Part shown: positions 6,968 to 56,341 of the stretch, in pieces | Numbering within the stretch: position 1 is the stretch's first letter | Layout of the letters: the number at the start of each line of letters is the position of its first letter | DNA from: a bacterium | GTDB taxonomy: Bacteria > Patescibacteriota > Saccharimonadia > CAILAD01 > JADZBC01 | Direction: 5' to 3' | Length of the DNA: 64,000 bases | Assembly: GCA_020852295.1 (NCBI GenBank) | Contig: JADZBC010000009.1 | Span: 104,628 to 168,627 of the forward strand | Position numbers and translations under genes: made by a program | Notes under the pieces: generated by a model | Told to the model about the DNA's origin: nothing | What the model saw: only the letters and a program-made list of their open reading frames with translations | Databases searched by the model: none

Positions 6968-7540
6968 ATGTTTCGTCACCTGTTTCCTAAAATATTTCGC
7001 ATTAGCCTAGCTGGTGCACTACTCATTATAAGTTTGAGCTTGGCTGCACTTGTTATTTCTAATCGTGCCAACATTGCTTCAAAGTTTAGCAATGCTGTTT
7101 CGCCGGTTGCCCAACAGTCTTTTGCAACGCAGCTACAGGGCTTGAATGATAATAAAGTCTTAAACTTCGCAGTCATTGTCATTACATGGAGTGGCGTCGG
7201 ACTCGTTGCCTACACCATCATCTGGATTGGTATGCTGATTTTGACAGAGGCTCGTAACGACATCGTTGTTGAGACTGAGTATGTAAATCGTGGACCGCTT
7301 AAAGATCGCTTAAGGGTGCCTCTCATCCAGATAGCGTTACTAGTAACCACATTGCTTGTTTTGGGCTTGAGTTTTAACAACCTTTTTCCGATATGGTCTG
7401 TCTTTTTTGCAGAGTTTGTATGGCGAATTCCAACCGATCTATTGGGGAGCATACCTAACTTCTTGATATCTGTTGGCGGGCTTTCGCTCAACGCCTATGT
7501 GGTCAAGGTATTGTTTACCGCGCTTATATCAATCGAGTGA
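6968..7540 (+). CDS. hypothetical polytopic membrane protein
   Basis: Long ORF with several hydrophobic segments. Confidence 0.4.
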   Translation: MFRHLFPKIFRISLAGALLIISLSLAALVISNRANIASKFSNAVSPVAQQSFATQLQGLNDNKVLNFAVIVITWSGVGLVAYTIIWIGMLILTEARNDIVVETEYVNRGPLKDRLRVPLIQIALLVTTLLVLGLSFNNLFPIWSVFFAEFVWRIPTDLLGSIPNFLISVGGLSLNAYVVKVLFTALISIE

Positions 7541-7541
7541 T

Positions 7542-8168
7542 TTAATACTTTCGGATGAGGCCAATCACGACGCCCTGTATCTTCAGGGGCGTGCCGGGCT
7601 CTACATAGATAGGCTCCATTGAGGAGTTGGCGGGTTGCAAACGAATGCGACGAGCCTCCTTGTAGTAGCGTTTGAGTGTAGCTTCTGAGTTATTGACGAG
7701 CGCAACAACGACTTCACCGTTACTCGGTACTTCCTTCTCTTGCACGACCACATAGTCACCGTCGTGGATGCCGTCTTCGATCATGCTCTCACCCTTTACC
7801 TGCAATACATAGCTATGCTTGCGGCCAACCATAAATGGTGGTACTTCGAGTGTTTCGGTGTGTCCTTCGGTCGTTTCAATTGGTCGACCTGCAGCGATCA
7901 GTCCAAGAATTGGCAAAGCTACGCCATCGCCTTGAGTGATAGCCGCTTCCACTTCTTCGACGGGGAGGAGAGAGCGAGCGGAGTTATTGCCCTTGGTGAG
8001 TAAGCCTTTACCGACCAAAGCCTCGATGTGCTGCGCCACGGTGGCGACCGAGCTAAGCTTTAAGCCATTGGCGATCTCGCGGTAGCTTGGTGAATACCCG
8101 CGTTGCTCAATAAAGCTCGTGACGTAGTCTAGAGTACGACGCTGTTTTTTGGTCAAGGCACTTTTCAT
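7542..8168 (-). CDS. lexA: LexA repressor (SOS regulator, S24 peptidase)
   Basis: N-terminal wHTH (YSPSYREIANGLKLSSVATVAQHIEALVGKGLL). AG cleavage site (LIAAGRP). Ser/Lys peptidase motif (VKGESMIEDGIHDGDYVVV). Confidence 0.85.
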   Translation of the reverse strand: MKSALTKKQRRTLDYVTSFIEQRGYSPSYREIANGLKLSSVATVAQHIEALVGKGLLTKGNNSARSLLPVEEVEAAITQGDGVALPILGLIAAGRPIETTEGHTETLEVPPFMVGRKHSYVLQVKGESMIEDGIHDGDYVVVQEKEVPSNGEVVVALVNNSEATLKRYYKEARRIRLQPANSSMEPIYVEPGTPLKIQGVVIGLIRKY

Positions 8169-8278: not shown

Positions 8279-8479
8279 CTAATTTTCTTCAGGTACGTTG
8301 AGTTCGTTGTACTGAGCTTCGGTAACAAATCGAGTTAGATTGGTGCCGTTGTTCTGCGCACGAACTGCGTAACGAGTCTGAGTGCTGCCATTCTTGGTCT
8401 CGCGGACAAACTTCTTCTTGGTCAGTTTGCTGTCGTCAATCTCGACCTTGGCACGGGCCTTTACGTCGTAAAACTGCAT
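8279..8479 (-). CDS. small hypothetical protein (66 aa), basic, upstream of lexA
   Basis: ORF has an SD-like aggagg upstream and its own terminator hairpin. No domain recognised. Confidence 0.45.
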   Translation of the reverse strand: MQFYDVKARAKVEIDDSKLTKKKFVRETKNGSTQTRYAVRAQNNGTNLTRFVTEAQYNELNVPEEN

Positions 8480-8619
8480 TTTTCTTCACCTCCTCCCTTA
8501 GTATGAATTTAGCCTCAGGTTCGCACAGCTCGCCTCACAATGCAATCATGAGCGCTATTCTAAGCTTGCGAATTTTTGTATCTCGGCGTTTAATAAGGCT
8601 AGTAAATAAGGTGTAGAGT

Positions 8620-9762
8620 ATGAAAAAACTAATTTTAGCTATGCAAGTTGGGCTCGTCGCGCTTGTGTTGGCGGTCATGACATTTGGCGTGGCTCACGCG
8701 GCCGAGACGCAGAAGCTTGTGACACTCGGCAAAGATGAAGTCTTCGACGGCTTTTTTGTACGAGCCGGCTCCATAATTAAAGTTAACGGTACAGTCAATG
8801 GTGATGTCTTTTTGGCTGGGCAGGACATCACTCTGGCGGGGCGTATCAATGGAAATGTTTACGCCGCAGCCCAGACGATTACGATCAAGGGCGAGGTGAC
8901 CGGTAGCGTACATCTGGCCGCCGCTCGAGTGGATGTCTCAGCTCCAGTCGATGGCACCGGCCTGGTGGCTGCTTCTGACCTTGAGGTTGCCAAAGAGGGG
9001 AGCTTTGGCCGCGGTTTGGTCAGCGGTGTGTCCACCGCCGACATTGCCGGAAAAGTCGGTGGGCCAATGTATCTCGGTGCATCGACGGTCAATCTCGAAA
9101 ACGAGGTAACTGGCTCTGCCACGATCGGCGCCGAGCAGATTGTAGTCTCGGGTGACGGCAAGTTTGGTAATGACCTTAAGTACTACTCTGACACCAAAGA
9201 TCAGGTTGCCAAAGAAAAAGTCGCTGGTCAGCTTACCTATGTGAAGCCACAAGCTGAGACGAGGACAAACGCAGCCACTGTACTGGCCTCGGTCATCTAT
9301 GGTCTTCTTGCGAGCCTTGTGCTTGGACTCACGCTGCTTTACCTGGCACCACGTAGTACTGCAGCAGTAGCTGACTACATCCAGCGCAAACCGTTTGTGG
9401 CGGTTGCATCTGGATTTGGTTTTGTCATCCTTGTACCGCTGGCGGTGATCTTTACCTTTGTAACTGTTATCGGTATTCCGCTAGCAGTGGTTGTGGGCTT
9501 ACTCTATGGCGTAACGCTCTTTGTCGGTGAGCTCTTTGTGGCGCTCTGGGTAGGACGTACACTGCTCAAGACGACCGACTCCAAGGTAGGCGCGAATGCG
9601 CTCGCACTCCTCGCCGGACTCGTTGTATTGGCAGCTCTCAAGCTGATACCGGTGGGTGGAGTATTTGTGGCACTGCTGGCATTCTTTGCCGGAGTGGGTG
9701 CTCTCGTGGCGCGCTCGATCGAGCGTATCAGTGCAGTACACCGCTCTCAGAGTCGAGCGTAA
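8620..9762 (+). CDS. bactofilin-like beta-helical repeat protein with C-terminal polytopic membrane domain
   Basis: Signal/TM at the N-terminus. Repeated V-x-G-x-V/INGNV/VTGSV motifs typical of polymer-forming bactofilin (DUF583) beta-helix. Four or more C-terminal TM helices. Confidence 0.5.
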   Translation: MKKLILAMQVGLVALVLAVMTFGVAHAAETQKLVTLGKDEVFDGFFVRAGSIIKVNGTVNGDVFLAGQDITLAGRINGNVYAAAQTITIKGEVTGSVHLAAARVDVSAPVDGTGLVAASDLEVAKEGSFGRGLVSGVSTADIAGKVGGPMYLGASTVNLENEVTGSATIGAEQIVVSGDGKFGNDLKYYSDTKDQVAKEKVAGQLTYVKPQAETRTNAATVLASVIYGLLASLVLGLTLLYLAPRSTAAVADYIQRKPFVAVASGFGFVILVPLAVIFTFVTVIGIPLAVVVGLLYGVTLFVGELFVALWVGRTLLKTTDSKVGANALALLAGLVVLAALKLIPVGGVFVALLAFFAGVGALVARSIERISAVHRSQSRA

Positions 9763-12150: not shown

Positions 12151-13188
12151 TCAGGCCTCGTCGGCCTGTTGCCGGCGCGGCTTGCGCGCCAGCAGGATGG
12201 ACGATCCCGCCGCAAAGAGCAGCAGGCCGCCCGCCACCAGCCACGGCGTGTAGCTGTTGGGGCCGGTGCAGGCGAGCCCACGGGGTGGGCAGTCGCTGCT
12301 CGGCCTGTTGCCGGCTGAGCTGGGGGTGGTCGTGGTCACCGCCGGGGCGGTGGTCGACGTCGTGCTCGTGCTGGTCGTCGTGGTGACGATGTCGCTCGTG
12401 CACTTGCCGTCCAGTCCTGGCGTGATCGCCCCCGAAAGGGTGATCGTGCGTCCGTCCTCGGCTTGCGCCACCAGCTGGTAGCTCGTCACCGTGGTGGCGC
12501 CGGGCAGCTGGTAGTTGTGGGCTTCAGCCGTACCCTCGCGGAGGGAGAGTCCGGCAAGGCCGGGAAAGGTCGGTGAACTCGTCACCGTCCAGTTCACGTC
12601 GCCGTTGTTGGACGCCTCCACCCGGAGGGAGTACACACCGACCGTCTCGCACTTGGCGTAGGCCTGGGTCGAACCCAGCAGCTCCGTCGGTGGCTTGACG
12701 GTCGTGGTGGTCGTCTTCATGGTGGTGGTCGTGACCGGTGGCTTGCAGCCGGTGGCCTCGTAGACGGCTTCGCGGCTGTCGCCGCCATCGCCGTCCGTCC
12801 ACTCCATGTCGAAGAAGATCAACCCTTGGCCGACTGAAGTCTTGGCGAGCTTGAGGCTCGCGGACGCGGTCTGGCCGGGCTTGACCTCGCCGAGGTTCGC
12901 GTACACCGAGGTGTCGCGATCAACGGCCGAGACGTACATCGACCGATGGTCGTTGTTGGTGAAGGAGACCTTCACCACGACCGACTGACTGCCCTCGGGG
13001 CAGCTGGCCGACGCGCTGGTTTCCACCGTCCACGCGCCAGCCACTTGGGCCGTCGCGATGGTGAACAGGCAGCCGATGAGGGCCGCCACGAGAATACGCA
13101 ATTGGCGCATTTGAAAACTCAACTTTCTCTGGGGATGTGGGGAACACCGTGGTGCGGCCAGCCGAAGCGGCGCAAACACGGAAGGCAT
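12151..13188 (-). CDS. secreted, Thr-rich cell-wall-anchored surface protein with LAxTG-type sorting signal (high-GC, foreign)
   Basis: Signal peptide. Thr-rich linkers. C-terminal LACTG + hydrophobic stretch + RKPRRQQ tail. Local GC about 68% by eye, against about 50% background. Confidence 0.7.
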   Translation of the reverse strand: MPSVFAPLRLAAPRCSPHPQRKLSFQMRQLRILVAALIGCLFTIATAQVAGAWTVETSASASCPEGSQSVVVKVSFTNNDHRSMYVSAVDRDTSVYANLGEVKPGQTASASLKLAKTSVGQGLIFFDMEWTDGDGGDSREAVYEATGCKPPVTTTTMKTTTTTVKPPTELLGSTQAYAKCETVGVYSLRVEASNNGDVNWTVTSSPTFPGLAGLSLREGTAEAHNYQLPGATTVTSYQLVAQAEDGRTITLSGAITPGLDGKCTSDIVTTTTSTSTTSTTAPAVTTTTPSSAGNRPSSDCPPRGLACTGPNSYTPWLVAGGLLLFAAGSSILLARKPRRQQADEA

Positions 13189-13302
13189 AAGATACCATAA
13201 AATACAAAAAAAGTCAATATATTTCGCATCTAATGCTTAAGCTTGATCTGGAGGGGGAATTATTGTACTATAGCAATCCCGTTCCCAACCTGTGAGGTTA
13301 TC

Positions 13303-13848
13303 ATGAAGCTTTACCAGCAATGGTGCCGATTGCGCACCCGCCTGAAGCTGGGTCGCCGCCATGGCTTCCCGCCCGGACTCCAGAATGTGTCCACATCTCA
13401 GCCCGGCGAGTCGTTTCGCGCCCGCCCCAACTTCTACTGGTATCGAGCGATCGGATGGCCGAGCTACATGCCGGTCTATCCTCAGCCAGCGCTCGTTCGT
13501 GGTACCGCCATCACCGAAGGGTGGCCGTGCGAGTTTCGCAGCACGCGCTGGCGCGCCCGTTGGGCCGGCCCGTACTGTGTTGACTGCGACGACCCAGCAG
13601 GTGATTGGGTGCTCGTAGTCGGCCAGGTGCATGGTGAGTTGGTGCGCAACGAGCACAAGCTGGCGGATGGCACACATGAGTCGTCCGACATCTGGAACCG
13701 CATCAAGGCTCCAATCGAGAAGCTTCGGCCCGGTATTGATCCGGCCACGCTCAGGATCGATGCGACGGGCATGTTCGTCTACGGCTACGTGCCGGACCTC
13801 TGGTTCGGCAACACCGGCTGGCACGACATCCCAGACGAGGAAGGGTGA
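13303..13848 (+). CDS. hypothetical Trp/Arg-rich protein on the high-GC island
   Basis: Very high third-position GC in this frame, about 80% counted by hand. ATG at 13303 chosen over the upstream in-frame start; start uncertain. Confidence 0.45.
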   Translation: MKLYQQWCRLRTRLKLGRRHGFPPGLQNVSTSQPGESFRARPNFYWYRAIGWPSYMPVYPQPALVRGTAITEGWPCEFRSTRWRARWAGPYCVDCDDPAGDWVLVVGQVHGELVRNEHKLADGTHESSDIWNRIKAPIEKLRPGIDPATLRIDATGMFVYGYVPDLWFGNTGWHDIPDEEG

Positions 13849-35363: not shown

Positions 35364-35398
35364 TCGCTAAGCATAAGGACTGATGATATACTAGCGGT

Positions 35399-35905
35399 AT
35401 GGTCCACATGGCCGCACTACCCAATATTAATTTCAATGCTAAGGCGCTGATCGTCGTCGGTATCATCTTGGTGCTTGGTATTGTGCTGGGTGAACACCGC
35501 GCCAAGCGGATTGCTATGGGCTCTTTTGTGGGTTTTATCGTCGCTGACAAGCTTGGACAGGGCGCATTTAACTACCTGCAGAAACAAACCTGGGGACAGG
35601 GCGTGAGCCTCTCGACCGTTCAGATTGTGCTCTTCGCAGCCTTTGTTTTGCTACTCACCGCCGGCCATAGCGAGGAGCTCGGTCGCGGCCACATCAACCT
35701 CAAACTGATCATTCTATCCTTGCTTACCTCGGTGTTTATCATCGCTTCGCTCATTGGATTTTTGCCGCCCGGTAGCCGCGAACAGCTCGTGACCGACTAC
35801 AACATTGCGGCCCTGATCTACAATTGGCAGTATGGCTGGCTGCTTGCTACCGCACTTTGGATGGCACTTCTCAACTATTTACCCAAGCCAGACAAGAAAA
35901 AATAA
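35399..35905 (+). CDS. hypothetical membrane protein (4-5 TM)
   Basis: ORF with hydrophobic helices. Confidence 0.4.
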   Translation: MVHMAALPNINFNAKALIVVGIILVLGIVLGEHRAKRIAMGSFVGFIVADKLGQGAFNYLQKQTWGQGVSLSTVQIVLFAAFVLLLTAGHSEELGRGHINLKLIILSLLTSVFIIASLIGFLPPGSREQLVTDYNIAALIYNWQYGWLLATALWMALLNYLPKPDKKK

Positions 35906-36009
35906 TATTGACAAGAGTGCTCCGCATCTCTAGTATTGACCCGTACTTATAACTAAACAAAAAACAACGAAAATTAATTGATTGCCAGCCTCAAGCGCAA
36001 TGAGGTAAA

Positions 36010-36927
36010 GTGGAGTTGACTATGAAAATTTACATACTTGCTCGACCAAATAGAAAGAACGGTGCCGAACGCCTTTTGCAGGCGGCGCTAGAGCGTGGTC
36101 ACGATGCGAAGCTCGTCGACTACACCAAGTGTTATTGTAATATCGAGAAGAGCAATCCTGAGATTCACTACGACGGTAAGGTGCTCGAGAAGCCAGATGC
36201 TATCATTCCGCGTATTTCGATCGCGTCGCAGAGCTATGGTTCTGCTATCATCCGTCAGTTTGAGATGATGAATGTCTTTAACACCACTGGCTCTTTGGCG
36301 TTTCTTCGCGCTCGTGACAAACTACGTAGCATGCAGCTACTCGCGCGTCACAGTATTGATTTTCCAAAAACAGCTTTTGCGATGGAGACCCAGCACATCG
36401 ATAACCTTATCGCCATGGTTGGCGGTGCACCACTCATAATCAAGGTTACACGTGGTAGTCAGGGCGTCGGCGTCATGCTTGCAGAGTCCAAAAATGCTGC
36501 CAAGTCAATCATCCAGACGCTCTACTCCCAGAACGTGAATATTATGGTGCAAGAGTACATCGCTGAATCGGCCGGTGCCGATGTACGCGTCTTTATTGTT
36601 GGAAGCAAGATTGTCGGGGCATTCAAACGTCAAGCTGTCGAAGGAGAGTTTCGTAGCAACATTCACACCGGTGGTGAAGGCAAGCCTATCCGCCTCACGA
36701 AGGAAGAGCGCAAGATGGCTCTGGCTGTCGCCAAGAACCACAACCTCTCCATCGCCGGAGTGGATCTGCTTCAATCCGATCGCGGTCCGCTCGCCATGGA
36801 GGTCAACGCGTTTCCAATGATGAACGCGATTGAGCAGGTGACTGGCAAAGACATCGCTGGCAGCATCATCAAATACGTCGAAGAGCAGGTGCCAAAGAAG
36901 CCAAAGCGCGACAAGGTTGGTGTCTAG
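36010..36927 (+). CDS. rimK: RimK-family ATP-grasp alpha-L-glutamate ligase
   Basis: ATP-grasp fold with RimK-like motifs (IIKVTRGSQGVGVML, VQEYIAE, GVDLL). Confidence 0.75.
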   Translation: MELTMKIYILARPNRKNGAERLLQAALERGHDAKLVDYTKCYCNIEKSNPEIHYDGKVLEKPDAIIPRISIASQSYGSAIIRQFEMMNVFNTTGSLAFLRARDKLRSMQLLARHSIDFPKTAFAMETQHIDNLIAMVGGAPLIIKVTRGSQGVGVMLAESKNAAKSIIQTLYSQNVNIMVQEYIAESAGADVRVFIVGSKIVGAFKRQAVEGEFRSNIHTGGEGKPIRLTKEERKMALAVAKNHNLSIAGVDLLQSDRGPLAMEVNAFPMMNAIEQVTGKDIAGSIIKYVEEQVPKKPKRDKVGV

Positions 36928-36936
36928 CCGAGGGCT

Positions 36937-37542
36937 TTGTTTATGAAAAAGCTCAATGTCCTGCTGATCGACAACGACACTCATTACAAGCAAAAGCTTC
37001 GCAATTTGTTGGCCGCTCATGATCTCACGGTTATTGATTACACCCAAATCGGCGAGATTGAGCAGACTGACTATGATGTCATCGTACTCTCGGGCGGAGG
37101 TATTAAGACCGAGGATGGCCGCCGCCGTTCCCTCAAACGTTTCTCGCATCTGTATGAAGATCAGATCAAGCTTGTCAAAGAAGCTAAAGTACCAATTGTT
37201 GGTATCTGCCTTGGCTGTCAGATTATCGGTCATGCTTATGGCGCAAAGCTTTCGCGTCAGTTCAAGATCCGCCGCAAGGGCCTGAGCGATATTGTTACCA
37301 TTCGCCACAGTGCGGTCATGGGTGATCTGCAAGAAGCAACAGTATTCCAGTCAAACCGCTGGATTATTACCGACCTACCAGATGATCTTATTTGTATCGC
37401 TGCTTCTGACGAAGGGGCAGAGGTGATTCGTCACCGTAGCAAGCCGCTCTATGGCGTGCAATTCCACCCCGAGCGTCGGGTTGGCAAAAACGACGGCGCC
37501 AAGATTTTTAATAACATCCTCAAAGTTATTTTTTCGAAGTAG
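36937..37542 (+). CDS. class-I glutamine amidotransferase / peptidase C26-like protein
   Basis: Nucleophile elbow GICLGCQ. C-terminal GVQFHPE. Confidence 0.7.
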   Translation: MFMKKLNVLLIDNDTHYKQKLRNLLAAHDLTVIDYTQIGEIEQTDYDVIVLSGGGIKTEDGRRRSLKRFSHLYEDQIKLVKEAKVPIVGICLGCQIIGHAYGAKLSRQFKIRRKGLSDIVTIRHSAVMGDLQEATVFQSNRWIITDLPDDLICIAASDEGAEVIRHRSKPLYGVQFHPERRVGKNDGAKIFNNILKVIFSK

Positions 37543-38236
37543 CTTTTTTCTTGGGTCGCTCGGTGGCGTAGAAGTTTTCGAAAATCACCTCGCCAATGTG
37601 GCGCGAAAACGGCATGCGACCGCGCTCGTGTCGACCAAGCCAGTTGCTTGGGAGGTGACGGGTAATGTGCTGGGTGATGATTGTTTTGGCGGTACGCTTA
37701 CTGATCTCCGGATGAAACTGTACGCCGTAGATATTGAGTAACTTATGCTCATAGGCCTCTATCTTGCAGCGCGCCGAGCTCGCGGTGATGATGAAGCCTT
37801 TCGGCAGACTCACGACGTCATCGTGATGGTGTTCAAACGCATAGAAGTTGTGTGGCAACCCGGCCAGCAGACGGCTCTCGCCATGACGGGTCATGCGAAA
37901 CCAGCCAGTTTCGGGGTTGACGTAGCTTTCAATGGCATCGCTACCCTCAAGGGCGGCCGCAATCATTTGGTGGCCAAAGCAAACCCCGAGGATCGGTATC
38001 TCTTCGCGGACTGCTTGGCGAATCAGCTTTTGCAAGTGGGGTAGGGTTGGGTCGTCCATCGAGACACGCCCGCCACCACCGGTGAGTACGACGTGACTAT
38101 AGTCATCGAGTTTTTTGGGTAGATCGTCATGAGCACGTACGGCGACGTCGTATTTGGCGCGGACGTCTTCGCGAAATACCGAGCACTTGTTGCAGAACTT
38201 CTGGAGGTGATTATCGATGATCAGTATATTGCGCAT
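37526..38236 (-). CDS. class-I glutamine amidotransferase / peptidase C26-like protein (second copy, convergent)
   Basis: GVCFGHQ and GVQFHPE catalytic motifs. Confidence 0.7.
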   Translation of the reverse strand: MRNILIIDNHLQKFCNKCSVFREDVRAKYDVAVRAHDDLPKKLDDYSHVVLTGGGGRVSMDDPTLPHLQKLIRQAVREEIPILGVCFGHQMIAAALEGSDAIESYVNPETGWFRMTRHGESRLLAGLPHNFYAFEHHHDDVVSLPKGFIITASSARCKIEAYEHKLLNIYGVQFHPEISKRTAKTIITQHITRHLPSNWLGRHERGRMPFSRHIGEVIFENFYATERPKKKATSKK

Positions 38237-38404
38237 TGTTTTATTGTATCAAAGCACAAGCACTTCAGAATACTTGCCAAATTATAACTTTTATGCTATA
38301 ATTTGCCACTGACGTCCCAGGTGTAATAACCTGGGCGCGTTCATCTACATCCACCACCACTTCAAGACCTCCTGAAGAAGGAGGCATGCCAAGGAAGTAT
38401 CACC

Positions 38405-38959
38405 ATGACCGAATTGCGCGATTACTTCGCGTACGGCTCCAACAACGACGCGCAGATGCTGGAGCGCCTCGGTCGACTGCCGTCCAAGGCGGTTGGCTTC
38501 GCCGAGCTGCATGGCTTTCGACCCGCCTTCATGGGTCGGAGCGTCAAGCGGTTCTGTGCCACGCTCACCGCCGTTCACACCGGCGACTTCGCCGATCGCG
38601 TGTTCGGCACGCTGTACCTCGACCTGACGGAAGAGGAGTTCGCCATCCTCGACCGCAAGGAAGGGGTGAAGTACGACGATCAGGGCAAGCCGACGGGCCG
38701 CTACATGCGGATCAGCCGACCGGTGACGATCAACGAAGGCGAGACCGCCGATCGTCAGGCTGAGCTCTACGTGATGACCGGCAACCTGCAGGTCGATCGC
38801 GAGGAGCGTGCGCCCAGCACGGACTACCTCTACAACGTCCTACAGGCCGCCTTCACGGCGGGCATGCCCGACTGGTACATCAAGAAGTACCTCATGGTGC
38901 CCACCGAGAACGTCGTGCGCCACGAGCGCATGCCGATCGACGACTGGCAGCCCGCCTGA
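38405..38959 (+). CDS. gamma-glutamylcyclotransferase (AIG2/GGCT-like), high-GC foreign gene
   Basis: N-terminal YFAYGSN motif. GC about 65% by eye with strong GC3 bias. Confidence 0.65.
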   Translation: MTELRDYFAYGSNNDAQMLERLGRLPSKAVGFAELHGFRPAFMGRSVKRFCATLTAVHTGDFADRVFGTLYLDLTEEEFAILDRKEGVKYDDQGKPTGRYMRISRPVTINEGETADRQAELYVMTGNLQVDREERAPSTDYLYNVLQAAFTAGMPDWYIKKYLMVPTENVVRHERMPIDDWQPA

Positions 38960-38967
38960 TCTTCGGG

Positions 38968-39012
38968 ATGGTGGTGGAAGTACGGGTGGGGCTTCGGCCC
39001 CACCCACCACCT
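38968..39012 (+). terminator. long GC hairpin (ggtggtgg..gggtggggc-ttcg-gccccaccc..ccaccacc)
   Basis: Perfect 9-bp core stem extended by ggtggtgg/ccaccacc, right after the GGCT stop. No clear T-tract. Confidence 0.45.
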
Positions 39013-39082
39013 CTATACTTTGCCGACAGATTGACTATTTTACTATTTTGAGCTTAAATATATGAGTTCATTGCCCCGTTGA

Positions 39083-39184
39083 GGCCCTTAGCTCAGTTGG
39101 TTGTCTCGCTTTGCGAGCTTCAAAATATGTGCTCGGACATTAACAGATTAAATACTTCGCTCCACGAACATTAATTTAATTCGT
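39083..39184 (+). other. tRNA-like 5' fragment (first about 20 nt identical to tRNA-Lys 5' end) followed by hairpin-rich spacer
   Basis: ggcccttagctcagttggtt is identical to the start of the adjacent tRNA-Lys, then diverges. No anticodon or T arm. Confidence 0.4.
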
Positions 39185-39261
39185 GGGCCCTTAGCTCAGT
39201 TGGTTAGAGCACCTGCCTTTTAAGCAGGGTGTCGTGGGTTCGAGCCCCACAGGGCCCTCCA
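39185..39261 (+). tRNA. tRNA-Lys (TTT)
   Basis: Cloverleaf with anticodon loop cuUUUaa. T-arm gtgggttcgagccccac. CCA encoded. Confidence 0.9.
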
Positions 39262-55678: not shown

Positions 55679-56341
55679 ATGGCGAAGAACCGTGACAAGA
55701 AGAAGGGCAGCAAGAAGCCCCAGATGAAGGCCGCCACGCCGGTCAAGTCGGGCAAGAAGAAGCCAGGGAAGGGCAAGCACGCCCACAAGAAGGTTGCTGC
55801 GATCATCGACTCGCACGACCAGAGCAAGATGGTGGTGGCTCGAGATGAGCTCAACGTTGCGATCGCGGCGTTGTCGCTCAGCAAGCCGCTGGCGGTGCTG
55901 GGTCTGAAGCCGCGCATCATGGCCATCTTCTCGAAGCTGGGTGTGGAGACGATCGGTCAGCTACTCGCCTTCCCGGACGAGACCTGGCGCCATCGCGGCA
56001 TCGGCTACGTGTCGCTGCGCGAGATCGATCGGGCATTGCGCCCGTTGGGCCTCGAGCTTGATCATCAGCCGGCGTCCGGCTACCACCTCACCACATCGAG
56101 ACTTACGCTCGAAGACCTCAGTGTCGTCGTTCCGCGAGTGGTTCGGGGTGGTGACAGTTCCGTGATCTGCTGCATCGAGCTGCAGAAGCGGTTCGGCGTG
56201 GTGACGGTCGCCGATCTGCTGGCGCTCGATGATCAGACCATCAGAGCCAGCCTGCCAGACAACGAGGAGTTGCCCATCTTCATGGAGGCAGTCGGTGAGC
56301 TGAGGGAGGCTCAGCGCCGCCTCGAAGCGTCGGCGGACTGA
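55679..56341 (+). CDS. high-GC foreign gene: Lys-rich N-terminal tail + two RpoA-alphaCTD-like helix-hairpin-helix modules
   Basis: GC about 65% by eye. LGLKPRIMAIFSKLGVETIGQLL and IELQKRFGVVTVADLL resemble alpha-CTD HhH motifs. Confidence 0.45.
   Translation: MAKNRDKKKGSKKPQMKAATPVKSGKKKPGKGKHAHKKVAAIIDSHDQSKMVVARDELNVAIAALSLSKPLAVLGLKPRIMAIFSKLGVETIGQLLAFPDETWRHRGIGYVSLREIDRALRPLGLELDHQPASGYHLTTSRLTLEDLSVVVPRVVRGGDSSVICCIELQKRFGVVTVADLLALDDQTIRASLPDNEELPIFMEAVGELREAQRRLEASAD

Follow-up and report, generated by a model that had tools for sequence, protein, structure and literature searches.

A rimK gene with class-I glutamine amidotransferase partners and an exchangeable GGCT cassette in Saccharibacteria: a possible glutamate supply and turnover unit

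Results and Discussion

Gene content of the locus

The stretch of DNA analysed here, called the window in the following, comprises 64,000 nucleotides (nt) of contig JADZBC010000009.1 from a bacterium of the class Saccharimonadia (assembly GCA_020852295.1). The present work concerns a cluster in it in which rimK, the gene of a RimK-family ATP-grasp ligase, is followed by the genes of two small proteins of the class-I glutamine amidotransferase (GATase) fold, which we call GatA and GatB, and by a GC-rich gene of the gamma-glutamylcyclotransferase (GGCT) type. Comparison with related loci, which are denoted by L and a number, showed that the rimK-GATase-GGCT cluster is real, conserved and, within the literature that could be searched, undescribed. 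The genes and features of the locus are the following:

35399-35905, plus strand: small membrane protein, 168 amino acids, no Pfam family
36022-36927, plus strand: rimK, 301 amino acids, RimK-family ATP-grasp alpha-L-glutamate ligase
36943-37542, plus strand: GatA, ATG start, 199 amino acids, pI 9.3, class-I GATase fold, Cys89/His175/Glu177
37526-38236, minus strand: GatB, 236 amino acids, pI 9.2, class-I GATase fold, standalone GuaA-like group
between GatB and GGCT: intergenic region of 168 nt
38405-38959, plus strand: GGCT, 184 amino acids, human GGCT type, YFAYGSN motif, Glu86; GC-rich exchangeable cassette
39083-39102, plus strand: exact 20-nt duplicate of the tRNA-Lys 5' end, matching 39186-39205, 103 nt upstream of the tRNA gene
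39185-39261, plus strand: tRNA-Lys(UUU), which marks the downstream end of the variable slot in nearly every related locus

The four adjacent genes for RimK, two convergent class-I GATases and GGCT that the original prediction had described are thus all present, with two of the starts slightly corrected. Together they form the order dnaJ - small membrane protein - rimK - GatA - GatB - GGCT - tRNA-Lys, inside a frame that runs from dnaJ to comEC. For rimK, the listing of open reading frames (ORFs) gives a GTG start at 36010; the ATG at 36022 lies behind GGAG, gives a gene equal to the 301-amino-acid genes of relatives, and is the likely start. GatA begins 15 nt past the end of rimK with GAGGG ahead of its ATG at the right spacing, from which it follows that the two genes are probably co-transcribed. 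GatB is convergent with GatA and the two overlap by 17 nt at their 3' ends; these ends overlap or abut in nearly all species (37526-37542 in the window, with the same junction in L005-L025), and since there is no room for a terminator at the junction, the transcripts must overlap antisense. A homologue of the small membrane protein was found 5' of rimK in L005-L025, L089 and L091, always between dnaJ and rimK in the clade, and this protein is a syntenic neighbour of the rimK module. The 20-nt duplicate of tRNA-Lys is possibly the scar of a past integration or recombination. In comparison to strain L004, the ratio of nonsynonymous to synonymous substitution rates was low for rimK (0.02), GatA (0) and GatB (0.09), and these three genes are under purifying selection.

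RimK family assignment

RimK matched the Pfam families RimK (PF08443, 201 bits) and Rimk_N (PF18030, 104 bits) and passed the NCBIfam model TIGR00768 with 224.9 bits in comparison to a cut-off of 143.4, which places it in the RimK family. It scored 322.4 bits over its full length (5-295 / 1-291) with the S6-glutamate ligase equivalog PRK10446, for which the cut-off is 331. RimK relatives across Saccharibacteria are 52% to 97% identical, and the RimKs linked to RimB are about 50% identical. The gene found ahead of rimK in most bacteria is rimB, which encodes a retropepsin-like protease. Glutamylation of ribosomal protein S6 by RimK-type enzymes is known to control translation, and up to now the RimB protease is the factor to which its regulation has been linked. 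RimB trims glutamates from polyglutamylated RpsF and also stimulates RimK (PMC11957791).

Conservation of the neighbourhood

A neighbourhood conserved nowhere else was among the outcomes that would have refuted the original prediction; instead, rimK-GatA-GatB was found to recur in about 25 species-level Saccharibacteria genomes. About 40 close relatives of GatA, 54% to 100% identical and all metagenome-derived, were collected, and a scan with a GatA profile over one genome per species returned about 20 GTDB species representatives, labelled mostly as Saccharibacteria or Saccharimonadia and for the rest generically (Patescibacteria, 'bacterium'). The order dnaJ - membrane protein - rimK - GatA - GatB, with GatB convergent, is kept wherever those contigs extend, and two loci have the order GAT-RimK-GAT instead. 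At every locus with a GatA-type protein of at least 40% identity (20 GTDB species representatives plus metagenome loci), its gene lies directly downstream of rimK; GatA-like proteins at 27% to 39% identity, from other phyla, do not adjoin rimK.

The approach was also reversed, in that metagenome contigs were scanned with a RimK profile and the neighbours of each hit classified locally. In the resulting 107 non-redundant rimK loci, which mix GatA-seeded and RimK-seeded searches so that the proportions are no unbiased frequency, a RimB-like gene directly upstream occurs without a GATase in 67, a GATase without RimB in 29, and both together in one (L095), and the remaining 10 lack both; in a further RimB locus, L144, a GATase is placed further upstream. 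All GATase-type loci carry a RimK at least 57% identical to that of the window and lie within the Saccharibacteria frame. No RimB-like ORF (PF05618) was found in the window locus or in the 29 GATase-type loci, and the locus is thus not of the rimBK kind, while the RimB of L090 was confirmed as PF05618 / NF052261-like. The layouts encountered are:

RimB-RimK-DUF192: for example L090
GAT...RimB-RimK-DUF192: L095, L144
GAT-RimK-GAT-DUF192: L026, L027, L088, L093, with GatB absent
RimK-GatA-GatB: the type of the window
RimK-GatA-MATCAP-GatB-GGCT-GATase: L089

GATases therefore abut rimK in varied layouts while the frame from dnaJ to comEC stays fixed, which indicates more than an inherited gene order. 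None of the literature searched, which did not include the amidoligase-neighbourhood survey of Iyer et al. 2009, joins Saccharibacteria with RimK, and an amidotransferase partner is unmentioned in the RimB papers, including the survey of PMC11957791.

A gene for a metallopeptidase of the MATCAP family (PF08014) stands inside the rimK cluster of L089 (6598-8037), and weaker relatives were seen inside or near the rimK clusters of L110 and L132. In animals, members of the MATCAP family act on tubulin as C-terminal carboxypeptidases and deglutamylases, removing C-terminal glutamates and polyglutamylation (PMC10499314).

GatA and GatB as GATases

GatA and GatB are members of the class-I GATases by the profile PF00117 (101 and 95 bits, respectively, with a cut-off of 22.8). 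The nucleophile elbows GICLGCQ and GVCFGHQ and the motif GVQFHPE, to which the original prediction had drawn attention, are present and kept in relatives: Cys89, His175 and Glu177 are invariant across 21 aligned GatA sequences, the HPE is kept in every GatA, GatB and related GATase ORF scanned, and the elbow is kept in 26 of the 28 GatA sequences. GatA and GatB share 27% identity and are basic in every species (pI 9 to 10.6), which fits acidic partners.

The further claim that the two GATases resemble peptidase family C26 as much as glutamine amidotransferases had to be given up, as profile scores, PDB sequences and folds all rank the GMP synthase subunit GuaA-A, PabA and TrpG above C26. The Peptidase C26 profile (PF07722, cut-off 20.5) gave 36 bits for GatA and 47.6 bits for GatB and covered the C-terminal half only. 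The best NCBIfam models were GMP synthase subunit A (NF001975: 85 bits for GatA and 105 for GatB in comparison to a cut-off of 198) and TrpG/PabA (TIGR00566: 66 and 42 bits in comparison to 121), all far under the cut-offs. The PDB sequence matches were TrpG, GuaA subunit A and PabA, to which the TM1158 group and the plant gamma-glutamyl peptidase GGP1 were added for GatB. An AlphaFold model of GatA, built from an alignment of 21 sequences (predicted local distance difference test score, pLDDT, 80; predicted template-modelling score 0.84), was nearest to the glutamine-binding subunits GuaA-A, PabA and TrpG (template-modelling score, TM, 0.64 to 0.69; identity 23% to 29%), and the C26 structure 3fij came at rank 32 of its fold neighbours with a TM of 0.57.

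Such matches could suggest that GatA and GatB are simply the glutaminase subunits of GMP synthase, aminodeoxychorismate synthase or anthranilate synthase, standing beside rimK by chance. This is very improbable in view of the scores of 85 and 105 in comparison to 198 bits and of 66 in comparison to 121 bits, the identity of 23% to 29% to solved subunits, and the constant place of GatA-type proteins (at least 40% identity) beside rimK, in Saccharibacteria. In none of about 30 loci was a gene for a synthase subunit seen, and Saccharibacteria generally lack amino-acid biosynthesis, which likewise speaks against it. GatA and GatB are best described as active-looking minimal GATases of the glutaminase type that, judging from their sequences, form families of their own, and they are neither C26-like by profile or fold nor recognisable subunits of a known synthase.

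More distant GatA-like GATases were seen beside FolC in a member of the Doudnabacteria (L028 6001-7788; TIGR01499, 291 bits), beside a CofE-like folate gamma-glutamate ligase in a member of the Bdellovibrionales (L030 2841-4294; TIGR04132, 221 bits, under the cut-off), and fused to an aminotransferase in an amino-group-carrier cluster of the LysX type in a betaproteobacterium (L033 3245-7792). Six of the most remote GatA-like loci were examined, and in three of them the GATase is thus paired with another kind of glutamate ligase.

A role of the GATases opposite to that of RimK has to be weighed at this point, namely that GatA and/or GatB strip glutamate off the RimK product as analogues of RimB, in the way that C26 enzymes oppose folylpolyglutamate synthase, and that GGCT clears the gamma-glutamyl fragments. 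Several observations are in line with it: RimB and GATase are near-mutually exclusive beside rimK, both GATases score above the Pfam C26 cut-off, the NCBI name of P0001, which is identical to GatA, is gamma-glutamyl-GABA hydrolase family protein, the basic character of the GATases suits poly-glutamate, and a MATCAP-family peptidase lies within the L089 cluster. The distant GatA-like genes by FolC and the CofE-like ligase also follow the ligase/hydrolase logic of folylpolyglutamate synthase and gamma-glutamyl hydrolase. The chemistry argues the other way. RimK-family ligases form alpha-peptide bonds, whereas the Cys-His-Glu chemistry of the GATases targets gamma-carboxamide bonds, and that of GGCT likewise acts on gamma-glutamyl amides. 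PF00117 outscores the C26 profile by a factor of two to three, GuaA-A, PabA and TrpG and not 3fij provide the nearest PDB sequences and folds, and RimB and a GATase occur together in L095. Direct trimming of the glutamate tail is therefore regarded as unlikely.

Another possibility, which turns on the pairing of GatA with an ATP-grasp enzyme, is that GatA donates ammonia and RimK supplies the acyl-phosphate, so that the pair amidates a carboxylate and, for example, caps or neutralises a glutamate tail. GatA is a minimal glutaminase of the GuaA/PabA/TrpG kind, and such subunits normally need a carboxylate-activating synthase; its gene, probably co-transcribed with that of an ATP-grasp enzyme, is never found apart from one. 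Set against this are the closeness of RimK to the E. coli equivalog (322 in comparison to 331 bits) with no sign of an altered active site, and a GatA of 199 amino acids with neither an evident ammonia channel nor a docking domain. As GatB, GGCT and the contexts of FolC and CofE would also be left unexplained, an amidating RimK is decidedly improbable.

The GGCT gene and its variable slot

GGCT passed the profile PF13772 with 41.5 bits in comparison to a cut-off of 27. A model built on 45 relatives (pLDDT 93) was closest to the human GGCT structures 2rbh, 3cry and 2i5t (TM 0.73 to 0.81), followed by ChaC2, AIG2-like and GGACT proteins. Across the 45 sequences E86 never varies, and the conservation of F8-A9-Y10-G11-S12-N13 is 90% or higher; Glu86 is the probable counterpart of the human catalytic Glu98. 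By fold and motif the slot protein is thus of the human GGCT type, and a 5-oxoproline-forming activity is predicted for it.

The composition of the gene sets it apart from its surroundings, with a GC content of 0.64 and a GC content at third codon positions (GC3) of 0.87 in comparison to a window mean GC3 of 0.55 (standard deviation 0.09; z = 3.7). The slot genes of related loci are similarly GC-rich relative to the locus as a whole (0.64/0.44 in L006, 0.58/0.42 in L005 and 0.60/0.43 in L014), and the orthologue of a sister species, 77% identical, has a GC3 of 0.83. A HMMER search of 1.84 billion representative sequences returned only 100 GGCT relatives at E <= 1e-3, the closest of which are Saccharibacteria slot genes, and an outside donor, actinobacterial or other, was not among these 100. 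High-GC Saccharibacteria exist (the L091 locus has a GC content of 0.58 and a GC3 of 0.75 to 0.85), and they are a plausible source of the cassette.

The comparison of strains gave evidence of exchange. Between the window and strain L004, which have about 95% DNA identity, the synonymous divergence (dS) was 0.58 for rimK, 0.28 for GatA and 0.23 for GatB, and 0.008 for GGCT. Low divergence, with 8 mismatches over some 1040 nt, extends from about 38168 as far as the L004 contig reaches (39210), while much of the flanks differs at 5 to 18 positions per 100 nt, in a mosaic in which some stretches are near-identical. Over the whole of 35368-39210, blocks of 0 to 3 and of 10 to 18 mismatches per 100 nt alternate. 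Such mosaic divergence between strains points to frequent homologous recombination in this Saccharibacteria population. Strain L003 (about 93% DNA identity) has the same flanks and a GGCT allele of only 38% identity swapped in at 38416-38955, that is, over the body of the ORF. In strain L001, which is 99.5% identical, GGCT and the next gene, of 206 amino acids, are split by frameshifts (7360-8034 and 8436-9054), whether as pseudogenes or through errors of assembly. In the window the GGCT ORF is enclosed by a 14-nt inverted repeat, TACATCCACCACCA / TGGTGGTGGAAGTA, at 38346-38359 / 38969-38982. This repeat was considered as a pair of recombination sites and set aside, since it is present also in the closely related L003 with its different allele, is absent in other species and may be due to chance.

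The GGCT cassette is thus foreign in composition, exchanged by recombination and circulating within Saccharibacteria as a resident of its slot. The original prediction had taken the gene for a horizontal acquisition that landed beside a native pair; foreign composition and exchange between strains agree with the first part, and the landing gives way to a long-standing occupant of the slot for which no outside donor was found.

The slot between GatB and tRNA-Lys is occupied by a gene of the GGCT fold in most species in which it is visible, and its contents are:

GGCT-fold gene: window, L003, L006, L010/L011, L014, L021 (two copies), L024, L025 (two copies), L089, L092, L171
uncharacterised family of 260 to 360 amino acids: L005 (7524-8453), L008 (3493-4575), L018 (7174-7953), L091 (7464-8399)
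ABC-transporter-like genes: L009, L013, L017
nothing: L023

Three types of GGCT can be told apart:

GC-rich, with a 10-residue insertion: the type of the window
normal composition: L089 and the second copies in L021 and L025
divergent, with a C-terminal extension common to the uncharacterised family of 260 to 360 amino acids

The common extension is illustrated by the C-terminal 64 residues, which are 53% identical between the uncharacterised-family protein of L005 and the GGCT-like protein of L014. This family has invariant residues H49, D63, D91, H98, H120 and E194 and gave no NCBIfam match and, with profiles of 3 or 8 sequences, no sequence match in the PDB. An identification as N-formylglutamate amidohydrolase, suggested by motifs, was discarded, because PF05013 was matched by one member at E = 0.11 and by none of the other seven. 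The family also occurs upstream of rimK (L022, L026, L027 and L088) and is thus likewise tied to the rimK-GATase loci. A variable slot invites comparison with defence systems; PADLOC models matched none of RimK, GatA, GatB, GGCT, the L003 GGCT allele, the uncharacterised family, MATCAP and the membrane protein, the PHROGs matches were limited to generic 'moron' families of GGCT and GATase, and a reading as defence system was dropped.

The variability of the slot raises the question of whether rimK and GatA are the sole functional pair, with GatB and GGCT being neighbours by inheritance and because tRNA-Lys is a hot spot of recombination or integration; this corresponds to the chance alternative that the original prediction had itself named. 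In accordance with this, tRNA-Lys adjoins the slot in nearly every species and a possible tRNA-fragment scar lies next to it, the cargo of the slot varies from GGCT types and the uncharacterised family to ABC transporter genes and nothing, GGCT is frameshifted in strain L001, mosaic recombination pervades the region in the population, many contigs end at the slot, and GatB is missing in the GAT-RimK-GAT lineages L026, L027, L088 and L093. The cargo is not random, however, as three kinds of enzyme with related substrates recur (GATase copies, the three GGCT types and MATCAP), and the uncharacterised slot family stands 5' of rimK in the other layouts (L022, L026, L027 and L088). Furthermore, GatB and the slot gene have in common a compact divergent promoter-like region, and integrase or mobile-element genes are absent at the locus. 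On balance we doubt that GatB and the slot gene are bystanders.

A proposed glutamate supply and turnover unit

The reading we favour, with a probability of roughly 0.45, is that the locus is a Saccharibacteria-specific rimK variant that would couple glutamate ligation to the hydrolysis of gamma-glutamyl amides, glutamine first, as a unit of supply and turnover. It starts from the finding that rimK in this clade is flanked by one to three small basic enzymes of the class-I GATase fold with intact Cys-His-Glu triads, and that RimB is absent. RimK, as its family suggests, would ligate L-glutamate to an acceptor at the expense of ATP, the acceptor being S6 or a similar acidic C-terminus. From its fold, triad and strict adjacency, GatA would form a gamma-glutamyl thioester on Cys89, hydrolyse glutamine or another gamma-glutamyl amide, and pass L-glutamate (plus ammonia) to RimK. 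GatB and GGCT, going by their families, may break other gamma-glutamyl amides to glutamate or to 5-oxoproline and an amine. Together these enzymes would supply and turn over glutamate around the ligase that uses it, in a bacterium that is probably unable to make amino acids.

Supply and turnover is preferred to direct trimming of the tail because GATases and GGCT act on gamma-glutamyl amides and RimK makes alpha bonds. A glutaminase that supplies glutamate would also fit the FolC and CofE contexts whatever the linkage, and the gene contents compared show that enzymes that cut glutamyl bonds are recurrently recruited to the locus, the MATCAP-family peptidase of L089 included. The co-selected glutamyl toolkit of the original prediction is in this way largely upheld by comparative genomics, leaving out its C26-like GATases and the single chance arrival of GGCT.

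A number of points weigh against supply and turnover. The difference between alpha and gamma linkage means that the enzymes cannot simply reverse one another, and we know of no precedent for a glutaminase that hands over glutamate instead of ammonia. The adjacencies to FolC and to CofE are one locus each. The slot is empty in L023 and holds unrelated genes in L009, L013 and L017, so that GGCT is dispensable. A GATase and RimB coexist in L095 and, at greater distance, in L144, and the GATase is thus no strict replacement of RimB; the mixed seeding of the 107 rimK loci has also to be borne in mind. Synteny is generally strong in Saccharibacteria, and shared ancestry of gene order could account for part of the conservation, especially where GatB and the slot are concerned. 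As for the acceptor, rpsF gave no tblastn match in the window or the related loci searched with E. coli S6 as query; there was also no ribosomal-protein family in the gene/Pfam table of the 10 kb beyond the right window edge, where rpsF was sought.

In a bolder form of the proposal, GatA and RimK would make up a new glutaminase/ATP-grasp complex, either a glutamine-fed glutamate ligase or an amidating RimK, which has displaced RimB, and a recombination slot would swap GC-rich enzymes that process gamma-glutamyl compounds (the three GGCT types and the His/Asp/Glu family). We consider this version speculative and unlikely.

The locus is of interest because a whole clade of ultra-small episymbiotic bacteria would have exchanged the RimB partner for enzymes of the GATase fold. 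It offers a testable handle on the role of RimK in organisms with minimal metabolism, on the roles of the many 'orphan' stand-alone class-I GATases, and on a glutamine/glutamate supply coupled to ribosome modification, and the GGCT cassette illustrates, on a small scale, how single genes recombine in populations of uncultivated Saccharibacteria. No major paradigm is changed, all function being inferred.

Comparison with known systems

Similar to rimBK and rimABK of Pseudomonas (PMC7343187, PMC11957791), the window locus has a ligase of the same family, with a near-equivalog score, and the gene of an accessory enzyme in the operon. The classical RimB-RimK(-DUF192) arrangement occurs in other Saccharibacteria-like loci with the same dnaJ...comEC frame. 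The key differences are that the window locus has neither RimB nor the EAL-domain protein RimA, that its partners are of the GATase fold and lie downstream or convergent, that it includes a GGCT slot, and that its acceptor is putative.

Folylpolyglutamate synthase with gamma-glutamyl hydrolase (C26), and PuuA with PuuD, likewise combine an ATP-dependent glutamate ligase with a Cys-His-Glu hydrolase of the class-I GATase fold; the linkages there are gamma, in comparison to alpha for RimK, and GatA and GatB are nearer to GuaA, PabA and TrpG. Carbamoyl-phosphate synthetase (ATP-grasp plus class-I GATase) and MurT/GatD also place a carboxylate-activating ATP-dependent enzyme beside a small glutaminase, but no docking domain was seen at the window locus and the active-site family of RimK is that of a glutamate ligase.

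In butirosin biosynthesis, BtrJ, an ATP-grasp gamma-glutamyl ligase, and BtrG, a deprotecting enzyme of the GGCT fold, add glutamate and later remove it as 5-oxoproline. As in the window, an ATP-grasp glutamate ligase and a GGCT-fold enzyme thus share one cluster; that system belongs to carrier-protein-bound secondary metabolism, whereas here a RimK orthologue, a GGCT of human type and a variable slot are found. With the gamma-glutamyl cycle (GGCT and the plant GGP1) the locus has in common that GatB matches standalone GATases of the GGP1/TM1158 type and that the slot protein is structurally a GGCT; in contrast to that cycle, no genes for gamma-glutamyl transpeptidase, glutathione synthesis or 5-oxoprolinase were seen in the locus.

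Regulatory sequence features and other observations

Three features of a regulatory kind, which are consensus matches or predicted folds, were noted at the locus:

35908-35936, plus strand: promoter-like site upstream of rimK, TTGACA-17-TAGTAT, 10 of 12 consensus positions matched, consensus match only
38274-38309: two overlapping divergent promoter-like sites, palindromic, TGCCAAATTATA / TATAATTTGCCA, one toward GGCT and the other toward GatB
38303-38404, plus strand: putative 5' leader ahead of the slot gene, predicted to fold into two hairpins, one at its 5' end and a second (CCUCCU...AGGAGG) over the Shine-Dalgarno sequence

At 38274-38309 the -35 box of each promoter-like site overlaps the -10 box of the other, and as judged from the sequence the two would compete or share an operator. 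Similar -35 and -10 boxes were found upstream of the slot gene in other species. The z score for folding of the leader was -2.0 in the window, -3.9 in L005 (7440-7529) and -3.8 in L014 (4434-4517); the L005 and L014 leaders are alike by eye, although the genes encode different enzymes. A riboswitch in the leader was considered and rejected, as there was no Rfam match and the leaders of 10 species gave no common alignable consensus, only local hairpins.

A gene of 423 amino acids from the HopA1 family (PF17914, a type III effector family) lies in the gap between dnaJ and the membrane protein in strains L003 (1043-2314) and L004 (169-1440), and is absent from the window. Elsewhere in the window, three further genes are outliers in GC3 in comparison to the mean of 0.55, namely 12151-13188 on the minus strand (0.85), 13243-13848 on the plus strand (0.74) and 55679-56341 on the plus strand (0.82), and none gave a significant Pfam match. 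One of these outliers encodes a protein of 345 amino acids with an N-terminus like a signal peptide, Thr-rich repeats and, at its C-terminus, LACTG followed by a hydrophobic stretch and RKPRR. The C-terminus resembles a sortase sorting signal of the LAxTG kind, which is typical of Actinobacteria, and this resemblance makes the gene a candidate for transfer from the host.

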